A DNA stretch of 64,000 nt from sequence record PZ674596.1, one strand, 5' to 3'. The stretch is from a phage. Shown here one piece after another: positions 14,501 through 20,500 of this stretch. How positions within the stretch are numbered: the first letter of the stretch is position 1; every line of letters begins with the position of its first letter. The position numbers were made by a program.

Positions 14501-17500
14501 GACTTTATAGCCTCAACAACCTTTTGTGATGCGCCTTTCTCTTTACCGAATCGCTCGTTATATGCAGCAAGAACCTGTTTTTCGTCCTCGTTAAGAGGAG
14601 CGGTGCCTTCTTTGTATAAAAATGCTGCGAGTTCAGGTTGGCGTTCTTCCAGCACCATCATCATAAGACGACTTGGCTCAATACCCAGCGCCAGCGCCAA
14701 CGGACGAACCTTATCGATAGGCAAAGGAATTTTGCCACTTTTAATTAAAGAAAGGTTGTTGGCATTTTTATAACCAATAAGTCTGGCTATTTGGGCCTGA
14801 CTCATAGGTGAGGATTCAATCAGCCCTGCGATAAAAGCAGCATAGCGACTTTCTATAAATTCAATCTTGTTGTCAGACATTGTTACAACCTTTGCGCGTT
14901 CAATTCTCACTGGTAAGTGCTTACCGATATTACATCAAAGGTTAGGGTTGTAAAGCTATTATCATTTTTTTCGATAGGCACTTAAAAGACCGGTTAAAGG
15001 CCATTGCACGGAGAAAAATTAGCCCAAAACAGGTAAGAAAATTAACTTGTATATGATATGAATGTATTCAGTATTGATATAAATTTTAGTAGTATTCCTT
15101 ACCATAGTATAAGTTAGAATGGATTGATTGAATGAACACCACTATTTCCAGCCTAATCGCTCTTGAGATCGGACACGTACAGAAATTAGCTGATGAGTGT
15201 GTAGCTGACATCCTCACCGATCTACCGAATGAGCAGATTCAGGTTGGTGTGAATGACACAACTGGCTTTATATTCGAATTTAACAACAAACGCTTCACGC
15301 TTCTCAATACCGGCTCCGGGTCTTTAGCCGTCAGAATCTGTTAACCCCTCTTCTCCCTGCGCGAATGGCTTAGTTCCCTGTTCGCGCAGTGCTACATTAA
15401 ACACACTAGTAAATAATTTGTTTTCATAACAAAGGATTAGCCATGTCTAAAAAACGTTCCATCAAAGAGGTTCAGGACTTCCGTGACAGTGTAAAACGAG
15501 TAGTCGCTCTCCTTTCAGGTAAAAACATCCCTGTTGCAGAACGAGGGGACGACGCTTATGTTCGCTATAACGATGATGGAGAGCCAATTCTCGTAAACAT
15601 CCCATCAATCCCGGATAACGCAACACCGGCATTGATGAATGCTGTGCGCGGATTTCTCGATCATGAGGTTGCTCACATTTTGTTTACCGATATTCGTGTG
15701 TCCAACAAAATGAGAGAAAAAGGACGCGTTCCTTCCTGGTCGCTATGGAATGCCTTAGAAGACGTGTTCATCGAGCGAAAAATGGGTCAGGTCTTTAACG
15801 GAACAAGACGTAATCTGATGGCAACTCAGCGCCTTATAATCGAAAAAGTCTTTAAACCAAAGGCTTCAGAGGCTATTGCTTATTGTGGCAAAGATCAGCG
15901 CGCGCTTTTTCTAAACTTCTTTCTCTGTCCGGTTGTAAGAGCCTGGGATGGCCAAGCACCGTTCGTAGATTTCATGGATGAATATTGGCCTGTCATTGAG
16001 AAACCAATTTCATTATTAAAAGAACATGGTATCGATGTGGCCGTGCGTAACATGTCTTGCACCGAGGATTGTGTAAAGGTGGCTGCGACCATAGCTAAGA
16101 TCCTCAAAGACACTGAAAGTGAAAGCAAAGGTAAGGAGTCAGCTCCGGGAAAAACTTCCGATCCTTCAGACGCTGACCAGACGGATGCCTCTGGAGAAAA
16201 CAATGAAGACAACGAAGATCATGAGACACTCTCAGTGTTAGATAATCACAAATCTATCAAATCAGAATCACATAGTAAGTACAAACATGATAATAACGAC
16301 AGTGATGATTCAGATAATTCTGAATCATCAGAAACAATATTCGATGATACAGAAAATGATAAAGAGGTATCAGATTCTGATGCTTCTGATAACGCGGCGT
16401 CAGAATCATTAACCGCTGACCACGAAAAAAGAAAAACGACAGAAGACGGCTCTTCAGATATCCCAACTCCGTCAAAAATGAGTCTGGAAGAGGCTTTAGA
16501 GGAGCTGGATAGCATAGAAGATGAAGTCGGAGGCATGACAGAAGATGCTCTATCCGAAACGATTAAAAGCGAGTTAACAGAAAGCTCGAAAAGCGAATAC
16601 AGGCCATACAATCGCTCATACGACTTCATCGGCTCGATTGATCAGGCAGAAGCCCATATCAAACGGCTTATTAAAACATTCTCCGATATTGATTTGGGAG
16701 GATATCCAATCAGCCGCTATCGCATCGTTCCTGAAGGCAACCAGCTCTTCGACAAATATATTGAAAAGCATCTTTCGTCAGGTGTTTCGTCGACGCTGGC
16801 AAAAGACCTGGAGCGAGCAATAGCAAGCAGAAACAGAGTTCAGTTTATACCGGGCCAGCGTCGGGGGCGCATTCATGGTTCTAGTATCTACAGATTAGCA
16901 ATGAATGATGCTCGCGTGTTTCGTAAAAAAGAAGAATCTAAAGCCGTTAACGCCTGTGTTCAACAAGTGATTGATTTATCAGGTTCAATGAGTGGTATAA
17001 CGATACAATTGGCTCTTGCAAGTGCATATACCATCGCCGATGCCCTTGATCGAATAAATGTTCCCAACATTATCACCGGCTTCACTACATTTGGTAGTCA
17101 TATGGCGGCAGGAGAACTTAAGGCTGTCAAGTATGAGTTCTCTCGCTTTGAATCTTTAATGCTACCTATCATCAAAAATTGGAATGAAAAGGTAAATTCT
17201 CGCGAAGTTCGCTCACGTATGGGGTGCGTAGGCTACACATTCCCACTTCTTAATAACGTGGATGGTGAAAGCATAGCCAGCCTTGCATCGTTATTTTCCG
17301 GTCGCTTGGAGGACAGGAAGATCATGCTTGTTCTGAGTGATGGCGCGCCGTGGGCTGTTGGGAGAGGTTTTGACGCTCATTTGCGTTCAGTTGCGAAGCA
17401 AATTGAAACGCAGACTGATATTGATTTGATGGCAATTGGCATCATGACTGACGCACCGGAGAGATTTTACTCAAATCATGCCCTGGTAACGAGCGTTGAT

Positions 17501-20500
17501 AGTCTTGGTTCATCTGTAGTTACTGAACTATCTCGTATCATTTTAAAGTGAACAAAACAGCCTTAATGATAAGTAACCACTTACGATAGATGATGATATA
17601 TTTATATAAGAAGTTGAACGCTCATTAGAGAACAAAGGAAAAACGCATGACGACTACTGCACTGCAAAATGAAAAAAATCCTTCTGATTACCTTGTTTGC
17701 AAGTGGTGCGGCAAATCATTTCACTATTTTAAGTCCCATGTAGCCAATGGTAATTGCGAGGGCATTCCTGAGTCAGTAAAAGATGCCGATCCTGACACCG
17801 TACTGAAAATGTACACAACGCAGTTTCCAGATGAACCAACGCTATCGAAAAAGGCACTTGATGCAATTCAAGCTAAACGTGCCGAGCAAAAAAGCGAAAT
17901 GGCCAAATCTTCTGGCTTGACCAGTAGCCCTGGCTACACAGGCACAGTTGAGTACAAGACAGATCTGGTCGCAGCTCACGAACTGCTAAACGTAACGGTG
18001 GAAGAACTCGGAACAAAACGTGGGACGCCGCTCATGGTTAGCGTCAACGTCAATACGCCGTATCCAGAGTTCGTTCCCGAAGTGAAGAAAGGCTACGTAT
18101 ATGGCGACTTCGAACTGATCAAAGATATTTTCATGATGCTTGAACTTGGCATACCTGGCTATTTGTGGGGTCATGCAGGAACAGGCAAATCGTCATTGCC
18201 TACACAGCTATGTGCTTTGCTCAATCGTCCGTTGATCCGTGCCCAACATACAGCATCAATGGAAGAGGCACATGTTACGGGGCAAATTCTGGCGCGTGAT
18301 GGCTCTACGTATTTCGAACCTGGCTTGCTTGCGCTCGCAATGAAGCATGGCTGGGTTTACCTCGCGGATGAATACGACTTTGCGTTTCCACAAATTCTTG
18401 GCGTGTATCAGCCAGTGCTGGAAGGTGAAGCGTTGGTCATCAAAGAGGCAACTCCAGAATGGCGTCGCATTACTCCGCATGAACGGTTTGCTTTCATTGG
18501 CACTGGCAACACGAACGGATCTGGTGATGAAACCGGCTTGTACCAGGGTACAAACATCCAGAACGCCGCGAACTTTTCGCGTTTTGGCATCGTTTCGAAT
18601 GTGAAATACATGAGCAAAGACGCAGAGATCAACATGCTGACAAATGCAGGCATCGTGGATGAATACGCTGAAAAGATGGTTAAGTTTGCCGGTATCGTTC
18701 GCGATGGATACGAAGAACACCTCATTAGTCAGCCAATTGGCCCTCGTGAACTTTTGTTGTCGGCCAAGATTGGAATGATGCGAGGCGACTTTGTGACAGG
18801 TATTGAGCGTTCTTTCATTAACAAACTCCCTTCAGCTTCTGCACAAGCGGCTCGTGAAGTTGTTCAAAAAATATTTGGTTAATCGTGCGTAAAGGATGTT
18901 TCGGCTCTCTTATCGCTGCTTCTGAAACTGGTAAGGCTTGTCTGGTGTGTCCAGACAAGCCCGATTGTCACCAATCAGCAAAAGAAGTTGCGATTTCGAT
19001 GCATGGGAAGTTCGTAGGCTTCCCCAATGACAAAATCAAAAAAACCAGAAAGGTAAAAACACATGAAGGCACTGATGGTTCGAACTGACTTCTCACTTGG
19101 GGAGTCGGCTCTAAAAGCAGAAAACGCGGTGAAGATTGCCAGAGAAGCTGGCTACACCGCTGTAATTTCAGCAGATAGCATGAATATTGCGAGCGTTATT
19201 CCACTACAACGTGCCGCTGGTGACGACATGGCGGTTATTTGTGGTGTGAAACTAAACATTGTTGATGATCCCACATACGAGCACCGGGCTAAACTTGCTA
19301 AAGAATCTATGAGATGTATGGAATCATTAGAGCGAGGACGTAACTACTCGTTTACCGCTCTAATTAAAAATGAGAAAGGATATCGCGACATCTGCGAACT
19401 AATGACGGCGGCCAACACACGAGAACAGTTCTACTTTGTACCGCGTCTCTCGCTCGAACAGTTGGTTTCTACATATGCCAAAGGCAACATCATCCTGCTT
19501 ACTTCCGACATCGGTAGCGTGTTCCAACGCAACGATTTTGCAAAAATCATAAGCACACTGATTACAGCGGGTGGAAAAGACAACTTCTATAGTGTGGTTT
19601 ATCCGCACCCTACCCCATTCTACGACCAGATTAACGTCCGGGCGATGAAAGTCGCCAGCGCATTGAAAATAGAGCCAGTGGCGTTCTATCCCGCTTATTA
19701 CGAATCGATCGACGATGCAGACATTAAAGACATTGCGCACATGGTTACGAACAACATCAAAATCGACCAGCCGCATCGTCTGCGTATCCCCCACCAGCGA
19801 GATAACGCCGTCAATGGTCGCCGCCATCTCCTTGAGGCGCTTAAAGCCTTCTCCGTTCGCATGGATGTGCCGGTAACAGCTGCAATGGCCTCAACAACGC
19901 AGGATACCATTATCGATGCCTGCACATGGCGCTGGCATGAATTGCCGCCAGCACTGCCAAAGATGGCAGACGACGAGCCTGCAACGCTGATGAAACTGGC
20001 TGTTGCAGGGCTGCGTAAACGTCTTACCACAAAAGAGTTTGGATACACACCACCTGCTTCTGAGAACAGGGTTTATGTTGAGCGGCTAAAGTACGAAATG
20101 GACACGCTGACTCGCCTGGGATTCTGTGGTTACTTCCTGATGGTACGCGATCTGATGAATCACAGCCGTGAAACTGGCATTCCTGTCGGGCCTGGTCGTG
20201 GTTCCTCCGCTGGATCTCTGGTGGCATGGTGCATAGGCATAACCAACGTCGACCCAATCCGTCACGGTCTTCTGTTTGAGCGTTTCATCAACCCTGAGCG
20301 TCTCGACTTGCCAGATGCGGATTTGGACTTCAGCCAGGCACGTCGCCATGAGGTGATCGAGTATCTGAATGAACGATACGGCGAAGATTACGTTGCAGGT
20401 ATTCCTAACTTCACATATCTGGGCGCAGCCTCTGCACTACGTGACACCGCTCGTATTTATGGTGTGGAGTCCGCAGATATGGCGGTATCAAAAGAGCTGA

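Follow-up and report, generated by a model that had tools for sequence, protein, structure and literature searches.

A phage CobS/CobT-like ATPase and vWA adaptor pair at the head of the replication operon of an SSU5-type phage-plasmid

Two adjacent genes that open the replication operon of an SSU5/pHCM2-type phage-plasmid of E. coli encode the phage version, already catalogued, of the cobalt-chelatase motor, an AAA+ ATPase with a vWA adaptor. In this element the pair is most likely not a chelatase and has a client other than CobN. With a probability of about 0.55, we favor a remodelling machine driven by ATP, and probably a protease as well, with a protein client in phage DNA replication or early development.

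The window analysed here is the whole 64,000-nucleotide stretch of sequence record PZ674596.1. A preliminary description had reported a 702-aa reading frame followed by one of 411 aa, and both were recovered at the same positions and lengths (Table 1). It had also described the phage role of such pairs as not yet established, in agreement with our full-text literature search on the function of the phage pair, which turned up no experiment and no more than descriptive proposals of an 'auxiliary metabolic gene' or a 'chaperone'. The pair itself is already known: phage cobST pairs are in the literature, and each protein matches a large annotated cluster at 99% identity. The cluster matching the CobT-like protein comprises 3307 sequences under the names 'CobT' or 'cobaltochelatase CobT-related protein', and the one matching the CobS-like ATPase has annotated members in the thousands. 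The two genes lie side by side in tailed phages of many hosts, and Liu et al. 2021 (PMC8651126) described a cobST cluster of viruses. The MoxR/metallopeptidase-vWA pair described in phages (PMC7824862), the cyanophage core cobS with its 'peptidase' and the viral cobST cluster (PMC8651126) are one and the same family, phrog_249 plus phrog_1576.

Table 1. Features of the cobST-like locus and its downstream neighbors in the window
Feature	Position	Strand	Evidence
CobT-like adaptor, 702 aa: zincin-like N-domain, acidic linker, shaft, vWA/MIDAS	15443..17551	+	ORF, Pfam, PHROG, PDB profile
N-terminal domain, residues 1-225: helix, three-stranded sheet and helical bundle, putative M48/M56-like zincin fold	15443..16117	+	
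Acidic Ser-rich linker, probably disordered, about residues 225-390	16115..16612	+	Composition
Putative shaft, about residues 450-495	16790..16927	+	Alignment to Brucella CobT, conservation
vWA domain with MIDAS D511-x-S513-x-S515 (nt 16973-16987)	16928..17548	+	CobT_C 7e-82
CobS-like MoxR-class AAA+ ATPase, 411 aa	17647..18882	+	AAA_5, PHROG, PDB, Foldseek
Putative Ros/MucR-type zinc-finger module, residues ~12-86 (C18, C21, H31, C37)	17680..17904	+	Ligand conservation, profile
67-aa Cys-rich ORF between ATPase gene and dnaE, with a 26-nt overlap into the start of dnaE; system membership uncertain	18885..19088	+	phrog_6337 3.2e-45
DnaE-type polymerase with C-terminal family-4 UDG-like domain	19063..22581	+	Pfam PHP, DNA_pol3_alpha, finger, HHH_6; TIGR00758 UDG 2.8e-7

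Family membership and conserved architecture of the pair

In HMM searches, the proteins fell into CobT/vWA and AAA_5/CobS/MoxR, the families that had been predicted, and not into unrelated ones. In the 702-aa protein, Pfam CobT (PF06213) matches residues 9-294 (2.3e-25, 90.1 bits, cut-off 26.1) and CobT_C (PF11775) matches residues 492-701 (7e-82, 274.8 bits, cut-off 21), and the whole protein matches phrog_1576 at 2e-299. When a profile of the CobT-like family was searched against the PDB, it found CobT (9uka_G, 5.6e-67), and NorD matched the vWA part (1.4e-3). The CobT superfamily architecture of an N-domain, an acidic linker and a vWA domain with a DxSxS MIDAS is present in full. The C-terminal MIDAS motif DLSGSMSG, correctly read in the preliminary description, occupies residues 511-518; its D511, S513 and S515 are kept in 147/147 family representatives and align with Brucella CobT D422, S424 and S426.

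An acidic stretch rich in Ser and Asp, of about 150 aa, had been described in the same protein and is borne out by its composition (residues 225-385, 161 aa, with 31 Ser, 26 Glu and 24 Asp, or 31% acidic and 19% Ser). It was, however, wrongly called 'giant': the linker measures about 170 aa here, below the median of 198 among the 147 representatives (64-347 aa), in which the median D+E fraction is 0.35. At the DNA level it holds a single trivial 9-nt repeat of 2.6 copies. Brucella CobT has an acidic linker too, a disordered one in the solved CobST structures (bioRxiv 10.64898/2026.07.21.739949). Judged by length and composition, the acidic linker is a family-wide trait and nothing unusual. Beyond it, the putative shaft segment aligns with residues ~369-414 of Brucella CobT, spanning the Q373-R413 shaft, and K454, E457, R458, G471, G475, L482, D489, R491 and F493 of this region are invariant or near-invariant in the family. 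From this alignment, the shaft of the phage protein is predicted to enter a CobS-type pore.

That a CobS/MoxR-like AAA+ ATPase follows was likewise upheld. Pfam AAA_5 matches its residues 173-293 (2.1e-15), phrog_249 matches at 1.1e-106, and the best PDB relative is the cobaltochelatase subunit CobS (9ujv, 1.1e-25). Walker A and B, sensor-1, the arginine finger and sensor-2 are all intact, and the site residues (Walker A GHAGTGKS at 175-182, Walker B D241-E242, N288/N290, R312 and R367) show no variation among 20 homologs and align to Brucella CobS G71-S78, D141-E142, N186, R210 and R271. The arrangement that characterizes a MoxR-class pair, an AAA_5/MoxR fold beside a vWA-MIDAS gene, is found here, with the two genes adjacent in 73/73 diverse loci.

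The closest comparison is Brucella melitensis CobS-CobT (PDB 9ujv, 9uka and others), which is the same two-gene module with the same AAA+ motifs. Brucella CobT and the phage protein share the order of M48-like N-domain, acidic linker (probably disordered in the phage protein as well), shaft segment and vWA/MIDAS, and the shaft segment and the contact residues between the CobS small domain and CobT_N are conserved: CobT D80 corresponds to D73 (invariant), CobS R312 to R/K408 (112/112) and CobS Q311 to Q407 (92/112). The A322-V326 patch of Brucella CobS is lacking in the phage ATPase because the phage protein ends at its QKIFG motif. By analogy, the phage proteins would form a CobS-CobT complex that works by the pore-shaft mechanism. 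Such a finger-in-pore mechanism is general to MoxR/vWA systems (PMC13036017; see also the CobSTN preprint, bioRxiv 10.64898/2026.07.21.739949). NorQ-NorD and CbbQ-CbbO follow the same principle of a vWA finger in a hexamer pore, and in Foldseek searches NorQ and CbbQ are the nearest solved folds for the ATPase body (E 1e-14, TM 0.85-0.88 on target). Their clients, nitric oxide reductase and Rubisco, set them apart from the phage pair, as do vWA partners without a zincin N-domain and ATPases without a zinc finger.

A putative zincin site on the adaptor and a putative zinc finger on the ATPase

Although the preliminary description had the families right, it overlooked an HExxH site, the Ros/MucR-type signature at the ATPase N-terminus, the setting in a replication operon and the wide existing annotation. 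The site, HEVAH, lies at residues 74-78 of the CobT-like protein (nt 15662-15676) and is followed downstream by E106-D107-x-x-I-E111. Conservation among the 147 representatives is nearly complete (H74 145, E75 145, H78 144, E106 146 and E111 147), and HExxH with a downstream Glu is also present in ICP2, Roseobacter phage CRP-810, a Rhizobium phage and cyanophage Syn33. In contrast, two bona fide bacterial CobTs carry SMALR or SIALK in its place. The fold model of the N-domain (pLDDT 92) has M48 and M56 peptidases as its top enzyme matches, at 6-12% identity. Compared with gluzincin peptidases of these families (ZMPSTE24, the BlaR1 sensor protease), the phage domain is very low in identity, is soluble and lacks membrane helices, and some phage lineages lack the site. 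We infer from these features that the N-domain is a putative zincin peptidase, with E106 or E111 as the zinc-ligand Glu. In a sample of diverse viruses, about 20% have lost HExxH (QEVAK, HEVAR, KEVSS), as has Pseudomonas phage nickie, so the zincin site is dispensable in those lineages. Because MIDAS and synteny persist in the phages without HExxH, proteolysis cannot be required of the pair in every phage.

The ATPase N-terminus had been called Cys-rich. Cysteines are present, but only three, and they belong to a conserved C-x2-C-x9-H-x4-(H/C) signature of Ros/MucR type. The ligands are kept at C18 in 110/112 sequences, C21 in 103/112, H31 in 104/112, and H36 in 80/112 or C37 in 34/112; the C-x2-C-x9-H-x4-H spacing was found in 73/80 viral loci. 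The best PDB match of an N-terminal profile was Ros87 (2jsp), a weak match (E 0.002, 21 bits) with its ligands in register, and the two have in common both this spacing and a subsequent ...Y...F/W-P... motif. Pfam ROS_MUCR matched 6/20 homologs (best E 1.5e-4) and gave no match to the window's own ATPase at E <= 0.1. In an AF2 model the module is folded and precedes a disordered linker (87-95). These sequence features suggest that the N-terminus may be a Ros/MucR-type C2H2 zinc finger and a putative DNA binder. Unlike Ros/MucR proteins, which are free-standing transcriptional regulators, this finger is fused to an AAA+ ATPase, and its fourth ligand in the SSU5 subgroup is probably C37 and not His. 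The fused finger also distinguishes the SSU5-type ATPase from CobS of ICP2 and cyanophage, where it is absent.

Position of the pair among phage replication genes

Downstream of the ATPase gene lie the small Cys-rich ORF and dnaE; in relatives, one or two small ORFs stand at the place of the Cys-rich ORF. A scan of the plus strand found no terminator-like site before 23097. The remainder of a near-identical plasmid encodes tail and structural genes. Across 80 diverse IMG/VR loci, the CobT-like gene lies upstream in 73/73, and in 67/67 DnaE follows on the same strand, usually with gp32, exonuclease and RecA further downstream; Nickievirus and Rhizobium phages show an identical gene order. The link to a DnaE-UDG polymerase separates the SSU5-type pair from the phage pairs described earlier in the literature. 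In ICP2 (cobT-cobS-primase-helicase-PolA) and in T4-like cyanophages the pair is again among replication genes; in cyanophage Syn33 (gp46...peptidase, glycosylase, cobS, gp45, gp44) the 'peptidase' close to cobS carries HEVGH, EDxxIE and DWSGSM. Within the SSU5 super-group, the conserved gene order may stem from common ancestry and not from functional coupling.

What the pair might act on

As the best-studied MoxR/vWA pairs are metal-insertion machines (NorQD places FeB into NOR, and CobST cobalt into corrin via CobN), the phage pair could be a metal-centre insertion chaperone for a phage DNA-metabolism metalloenzyme, for instance the exonuclease site in the PHP domain of the neighboring DnaE, or the di-iron small subunit of ribonucleotide reductase (RNR). 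An RNR is encoded in the window, the PHP-domain DnaE is invariably adjacent in the SSU5 super-group, and at 1172 aa it is CobN-sized. However, ICP2 (PolA) and T4-like cyanophages have the pair without a PHP-type polymerase, and the pair is missing from more than 1100 DnaE-encoding phage records. With 1213 phage records carrying a DnaE-type polymerase and only 47 a CobT-like gene, the pair is no cofactor of DnaE in general. The conserved HExxH would also be left without a role, and we consider metal insertion improbable.

A virion-assembly chaperone or maturation protease that folds or processes structural proteins is similarly doubtful. Iyer et al. 2021 (PMC7824862) took MoxR/vWA tail assembly in Acidianus two-tailed virus as an analogy and proposed that in T4-like jumbo phages the metallopeptidase-vWA/MoxR pair has a virion role. 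Their architecture, an HExxH metallopeptidase-like N-domain fused to vWA with the ATPase adjacent in a phage genome, is the one found here, and its conserved zincin motif could offer a means of processing structural proteins. Against this, the genes sit in the replication/recombination cluster and not in the structural module in every lineage examined, and the Ros-type finger suggests a link to DNA.

A position among early or replication genes is also compatible with a role in host takeover or counter-defence, in which an early ATP-driven protease or remodeller strips host nucleoid, replisome or immunity proteins from DNA. No model of the PADLOC library, which covers defence and not anti-defence, matched, and a match to AcrIIA26 was marginal (E 0.002). 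Because the pair is conserved across phages of very different hosts, a conserved client is indicated and not a fast-evolving immune target, and we hold this role, too, to be unlikely.

The usual 'cobS auxiliary metabolic gene' reading, proposed by Liu et al. 2021 (PMC8651126), has phage CobS and CobT hijack a host CobN (or ChlH-type subunit) and raise cobalamin, for example for B12-dependent ribonucleotide reduction. The nearest characterised homologs are indeed chelatase motor subunits, and the proposal may be tenable where the host has CobN without CobST, as in cyanobacteria and haloarchaea (PMC8651126). In this element, however, the equivalog cut-offs are missed 6- to 11-fold, with 86.6 bits against 558.55 for CobS (TIGR01650) and 67.7 bits against 759.05 for CobT (TIGR01651). 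Pfam detects no CobS_N domain (PF12556) in the window's ATPase, which has the zinc-finger extension in its stead, whereas CobS_N is present in Brucella CobS and in two bona fide CobS proteins encoded beside a real cobT; the HExxH conserved in phages is, as noted above, lost in real CobT. DnaE is the sole product above 800 aa in the window, and neither the element nor, as far as the literature shows, the host supplies a CobN partner. The phage-encoded RNR is of class I. Class I RNRs are independent of B12, and Salmonella and Klebsiella use the CbiK route. To our knowledge, E. coli lacks the aerobic B12 pathway, its substrate and CobN, and V. cholerae, the host of ICP2, lacks de novo B12 synthesis. 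B12 synthesis in E. coli requires heterologous cobN, cobS and cobT together with the whole corrin pathway (PMC6249242). In the lysogeny expression data for Cyrano, the pair (CYRAN_47/48) is not among the genes expressed above background. A cobalamin role is thus very unlikely here, and neither published functional proposal, virion assembly or CobN hijack, fits the context of this pair.

In the remodelling mechanism that we favor, the pair would serve a lytic-cycle function and be co-transcribed with the phage replication and recombination genes. By homology to the Brucella CobST and NorQD complexes, the 411-aa ATPase would assemble into a hexameric ring, and the 702-aa partner would dock its N-domain onto the small AAA+ subdomain, insert its CobT-like shaft into the ATPase pore and present its MIDAS face to the client. 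ATP hydrolysis would then twist or pull the adaptor and so remodel the client, which in most lineages would probably also be cleaved by the N-domain through the HExxH zincin site that it has retained. The zinc finger of Ros/MucR type may tether the machine to DNA, and the client would be a protein, possibly associated with DNA, on which phage DNA replication or early development depends or which stands in their way.

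The CobT-like and CobS-like proteins

The preliminary description had proposed that a CobT-like vWA protein is encoded next to a CobS/MoxR-like AAA+ ATPase, and the ORF listing confirmed both reading frames. Pfam placed the first protein in the CobT family (CobT at residues 9-294, 2.3e-25; CobT_C, the CobT vWA domain, at residues 492-701, 7e-82), with the MIDAS motif DLSGSMSG at residues 511-518. The second protein matched AAA_5 (2.1e-15) and carries the Walker A motif GHAGTGKS at residues 175-182. In these HMM searches (vWA, AAA_5/CbbQ), both proteins fell in the families that had been predicted. 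A PDB search returned cobaltochelatase CobS as the best solved relative of the ATPase (1.1e-25), followed by midasin, CbbQ, and NorQ. PHROG assigned the CobT-like protein to phrog_1576 (2e-299) and the ATPase to phrog_249 (1.1e-106).

The pair is real and was correctly recognized, but it is not new. Database clusters 99% identical to the two proteins hold 3307 and 1077 member sequences, under the names "cobalamin biosynthesis protein CobT", "cobaltochelatase CobT-related protein", "AAA family ATPase", and "porphyrin biosynthesis protein". A two-gene cobS-cobT cluster is common among tailed viruses of bacteria and archaea (PMC8651126), and in T4-like jumbo phages a MoxR AAA+ ATPase is paired with a vWA protein bearing a metallopeptidase domain at its N-terminus (PMC7824862). 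Therefore, the pair, its family assignment, the phage family, and the peptidase-vWA/MoxR architecture are already known, and for the window itself this is an ordinary finding of an annotated gene pair. The role of such pairs in phages had been described as not established; consistent with this, our full-text literature searches found no experiment on the function of a phage CobS/CobT pair.

Some of the existing names are misleading. In phage Cyrano (OV696614), the counterparts CYRAN_47 and CYRAN_48 are labelled "dimethylbenzimidazole phosphoribosyltransferase" and "cobalamin synthetase", a misannotation that stems from the collision between the CobT/CobS names of Salmonella and those of the Pseudomonas nomenclature. 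SSU5 and PHROG records use "porphyrin biosynthesis protein", a label with no better support.

Over the 4.1-kb pair region, identity was 99.7% to Escherichia phage CMS-2020a, 98.6% to Cyrano (pLF82), and 97% to PhiR41_1, which has E. coli K-12 MG1655 on record as its host; Salmonella phage SSU5 matched at 74.6% over partial length only. The region also matched 464 plasmid records from Escherichia, Enterobacter, Yersinia, Salmonella, and others. These matches identify the window as an SSU5/pHCM2-type phage-plasmid. An IS transposase (DDE_Tnp_1_4, 2e-55) lies in the replication-gene region, between primase and a ligase/tRNA area, where GC content dips to 0.36; this IS element is outside the conserved phage backbone. 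A 184-aa ORF lacking a Pfam match is the homolog of CYRAN_43, by far the highest-expressed Cyrano gene in lysogeny (723-fold over local background in the LF82 study), and is a moron candidate. RecA has 357 aa in the window versus 779 aa in Cyrano and plasmid NZ_CP062854, where the alleles are annotated as RecA or LAGLIDADG homing endonuclease and seem to carry an intein or homing-endonuclease insertion absent from the window. For RecA, window 25558-26631 was set against Cyrano from 21372 onward and against plasmid positions 4413-6752. Cyrano also has a HicAB module after dnaE that is absent from the window.

Coordinates of features in the window and in two comparison phages
Feature	Sequence	Coordinates	Strand	Product length (aa)
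Low-GC segment	window	6001-8000		
IS transposase	window	6201-7463		
CYRAN_43 homolog	window	12574-13128	-	184
CobT-like vWA protein	window	15443-17551	+	702
CobS-like ATPase	window	17647-18882	+	411
Cys-rich ORF	window	18885-19088		67
DnaE	window	19063-22581		
RecA	window	25558-26631		357
CobS-like ATPase	Roseobacter phage CRP-810	1827-3680		617
Pyrimidine-dimer DNA glycosylase	Roseobacter phage CRP-810	6037-6531		
Pyrimidine-dimer DNA glycosylase	cyanophage Syn33	5215-5727		

Comparison with the Brucella chelatase motor

According to a 2026 preprint (10.64898/2026.07.21.739949), Brucella CobS forms a hexameric spiral or ring. The N-domain of CobT resembles M48C peptidases and docks on the small subdomain of CobS; then come a disordered linker (about 90 residues), a "shaft" (Q373-R413) inserted into the pore of the ring when nucleotide binds, and a vWA domain whose MIDAS is directed toward CobN. 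Each of these motor parts has a counterpart in the phage pair. Walker A, Walker B, sensor-1, R-finger, and sensor-2 were invariant across 20 ATPase homologs at 44-78% identity. A profile built from 41 phage-type proteins aligned with the linker, shaft, and vWA domain of Brucella CobT (5.6e-67); the putative counterpart of the shaft (about residues 450-495) has many invariant or near-invariant residues, and all 147 CobT-like representatives have the MIDAS. Among the residues of the Brucella interface, CobT D80 and R76 align with phage D73, which is invariant, and R69, and CobS R312 and Q311 align with phage R/K408 (112/112) and Q407 (92/112).

An AlphaFold model of residues 1-228 of the CobT-like protein (pLDDT 92, pTM 0.87) shows a helix, a three-stranded sheet, and a helical bundle, the topology described for CobT_N in the preprint. 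The full ATPase model (pLDDT 84) superposed best on NorQ and CbbQ, with TM scores of 0.85-0.88 on the target. Foldseek comparison of the CobT_N model with the PDB gave no match below E = 1; helical bundles score poorly in such searches, and the CobT_N crystal entry is probably newer. Single-sequence phmmer of the N-domain against PDB sequences gave chance matches only, such as HLA-DR and SOD. By homology, the retained parts point to a CobST-like motor-adaptor complex, and it is highly probable that the two proteins would assemble with the ATPase as motor.

The preliminary description had called the acidic linker "giant". The Ser/Asp-rich stretch was found at residues 225-385 (161 aa with 31 Ser, 26 Glu, and 24 Asp), but at about 170 aa and a D+E fraction of 0.30 the linker lies within the family values (64-347 aa, median 198; median D+E fraction 0.35). 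We therefore rejected an exceptional linker: it is a family trait. A tandem-repeat array was also rejected at the DNA level.

In the N-domain, HEVAH occupies residues 74-78, and E106-D107-x-x-I-E111 lies downstream of it. The 147 representatives (30-57% identity) retain H74, E75, and H78 in 144-145 cases and both E106 and E111 in 146-147. Because a protein search with Brucella CobT_C gave mostly N-terminally truncated gene calls, we took two bona fide cobT sequences from the contig DNA itself, each adjoining a cobS with the CobS_N domain. At the position aligned to HEVAH, they have RGLGD-SMALR and RGHAD-SIALK. Real CobT would thus be a pseudo-peptidase, in contrast to the phage-type protein with its complete zincin signature. 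Vibrio phage ICP2 (HECYH), CRP-810 (HEAGH), a Rhizobium phage, and Syn33 (HEVGH) retain HExxH; Pseudomonas phage nickie (SEISK) has lost it. Of 75 diverse viral loci, 15 showed the motif in degenerate form or not at all (QEVAK, HEVAR, KEVSS, and one lacking it), yet synteny is retained in such loci and MIDAS was present in 73 of the 75; catalysis, if any, is therefore not indispensable everywhere. Separately, profile positions 96-186 of the N-domain (residues ~100-190 of the window protein) resembled anti-CRISPR AcrIIA26 (9zq6_B; E 0.002, 19.7 bits), a weak likeness that we judged to be probably chance.

The ATPase had been said to have a Cys-rich N-terminus. Conserved cysteines are indeed present, but they are better described as part of a C18-x2-C21-x9-H31-x4-(H36 or C37) module; after it, Y56 and S67 are invariant and P61 is nearly so. 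Ros/MucR domains bind DNA, and the top PDB match of the N-terminal profile was the Ros87 zinc finger (2jsp, E 0.002), with all four ligands in register. Pfam ROS_MUCR matched 6 of 20 ATPase homologs and gave no match on the window ATPase itself. In the ATPase model, the module is folded, and a disordered linker connects it to the AAA+ body. The CobS-like ATPase of CRP-810, where cobS lies ahead of cobT in inverted order, has an N-terminal extension of about 360 aa, which shows the N-terminal accessory part of phage CobS to be variable, a module that can be swapped.

Position in the replication block

The window encodes, in order, a DnaB-type helicase, primase, the IS transposase, glutaredoxin (named in Cyrano and plasmid records), an integrase, an HTH repressor (- strand), a 70-aa ORF, the CobT-like and CobS-like genes, a 67-aa Cys-rich ORF, DnaE fused to a UDG-like domain, gp32-type SSB, 5'-3' exonuclease, and RecA, with an SbcC-like ATPase and class I ribonucleotide reductase farther on. 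We found no terminator-like site on the + strand from the CobT-like start to 23097. A consensus promoter scan gave fewer sites than shuffled sequence and did not pinpoint a promoter for the operon.

A first IMG/VR scan yielded only relatives at 77% identity or more; we therefore anchored the search on a distant homolog and collected 80 diverse loci whose ATPases were 46-62% identical to it. Counting only loci with enough sequence, a two-domain CobT-like gene was immediately upstream of the ATPase in 73/73 and DnaE downstream on the same strand in 67/67. Also downstream were gp32-type SSB (47/55), 5'-3' exonuclease (53/55), and RecA (48/55); helicase (14/49), primase (21/49), and integrase (4/49) were found upstream. 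Pseudomonas Nickievirus and Rhizobium phages, at about 31-36% identity, share this gene order. Outside this SSU5 super-group, the pair again sits with replication genes: ICP2 has cobT-cobS-primase-helicase-PolA, and the T4-like Syn33 has gp46, nrdC, a "peptidase", a Pyr_excise glycosylase, cobS, gp45, gp44, and gp62. A dedicated DnaE cofactor was rejected as a general rule, since 1213 phage records have a DnaE-type polymerase, against 47 with the CobT-like and 494 with the CobS-like protein; most of the last are from cyanophages, and about 430 cyanophage records carry cobS and no DnaE. The LF82 lysogen transcriptome shows expression above background for the Cyrano repressor and several toxin-antitoxin genes but does not list CYRAN_47 and CYRAN_48, which fits repressed lytic genes.

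The DnaE C-terminus (residues ~1027-1172) resembles family-4 uracil-DNA glycosylases (TIGR00758, 2.8e-7). Pfam UDG also matched DnaE of distant relatives, and tblastn found the domain in 36 of 67 diverse loci. Such a fusion of polymerase and UDG is reminiscent of the UDG processivity factor of poxviruses. A pyrimidine-dimer DNA glycosylase gene lies between or adjoining cobT-like and cobS genes in Syn33 (Pyr_excise, 3.1e-13) and CRP-810, two unrelated phages, and together with the UDG-like domain of the SSU5 group this points to a recurring association of the pair with DNA glycosylases. The Syn33 "DNA binding protein" before cobS is this glycosylase, and we rejected it as a free-standing Ros finger. 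The Cys-rich ORF (C5, C19, C22, C28; phrog_6337) and the start of dnaE share 26 nt, an overlap suggestive of translational coupling; in relatives, this position is taken by one or two other small ORFs, sometimes a sigma-70 region-2-like protein.

A probable remodelling machine and its alternatives

The explanation that we favor, with a probability of roughly 0.55 as a whole, is an ATP-driven remodeller, probably also a protease, with a protein client in phage replication or early development; that the client belongs to this phase is about an even call. A CobS-like hexamer would hold the shaft of the CobT-like adaptor, the MIDAS would bind the client, and ATP hydrolysis would remodel it, as in CobST and NorQD (PMC13036017). 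In most lineages the zincin site would probably cut the client, and the putative Ros-type finger may place the machine on DNA.

Metal insertion into a phage metalloenzyme of replication or nucleotide metabolism has a precedent in MoxR and would suit the adjacency to DnaE-PHP, but it fits the ICP2 and cyanophage contexts poorly and is unlikely. A host-takeover or counter-defence protease appears slightly less probable still; a PADLOC scan, whose models are of defence and not anti-defence systems, gave no match. We rate virion assembly or processing, a published proposal, just as low, as in the lineages examined the pair is never inside structural modules.

Several features speak against service as a chelatase. 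NCBIfam equivalog scores were 86.6 for CobS (cut-off 558.6) and 67.7 for CobT (cut-off 759). Pfam found no CobS_N domain, present in bona fide CobS, in the window ATPase. The window has no CobN, its sole ORF above 800 aa being DnaE, and the remainder of a near-identical plasmid holds tail and structural genes. The phage ribonucleotide reductase is of class I, a B12-independent class. E. coli has no chelatase-substrate pathway of its own. To make the substrate, it must be supplied with cobN, cobS, and cobT and the whole corrin pathway (PMC6249242). The pair is thus very probably not a chelatase here, and hijacking of a CobN for B12 synthesis, which host, motif, and context all contradict, is highly improbable. 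Lack of CobN and substrate, the conserved protease-like site, and the replication-operon position make a B12 reading unlikely here and questionable elsewhere.

What is added here is the intact zincin site of phage-type proteins versus its loss in two genuine CobTs, the probable Ros-type finger of the ATPase, the quantified invariant replication-block linkage in the SSU5 super-group with similar siting in two unrelated phage groups, and the argument that in an E. coli host a B12 "auxiliary metabolic gene" label cannot hold. cobS is among the commonest auxiliary metabolic genes reported in marine, freshwater, and gut viromes, where its cobT-like partner goes unrecognized, and is a core gene of T4-like cyanophages; its role in vitamin B12 synthesis is a presumption. 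SSU5-type phage-plasmids replicate and plaque on E. coli K-12, which makes them a tractable genetic system for viral CobS/CobT function. A bolder and rather doubtful possibility is that phage-type "CobST" is the ancestral, catalytically complete machine, a Ros-finger DNA-tethered, ATP-driven unfoldase/adaptor with a working zincin protease that clears or processes a specific protein at the replication fork or incoming genome. If so, the bacterial cobaltochelatase motor would be a derived pseudo-protease recruited to CobN, and hundreds of marine-virome "cobS" auxiliary metabolic gene calls would be misassigned replication or takeover functions.
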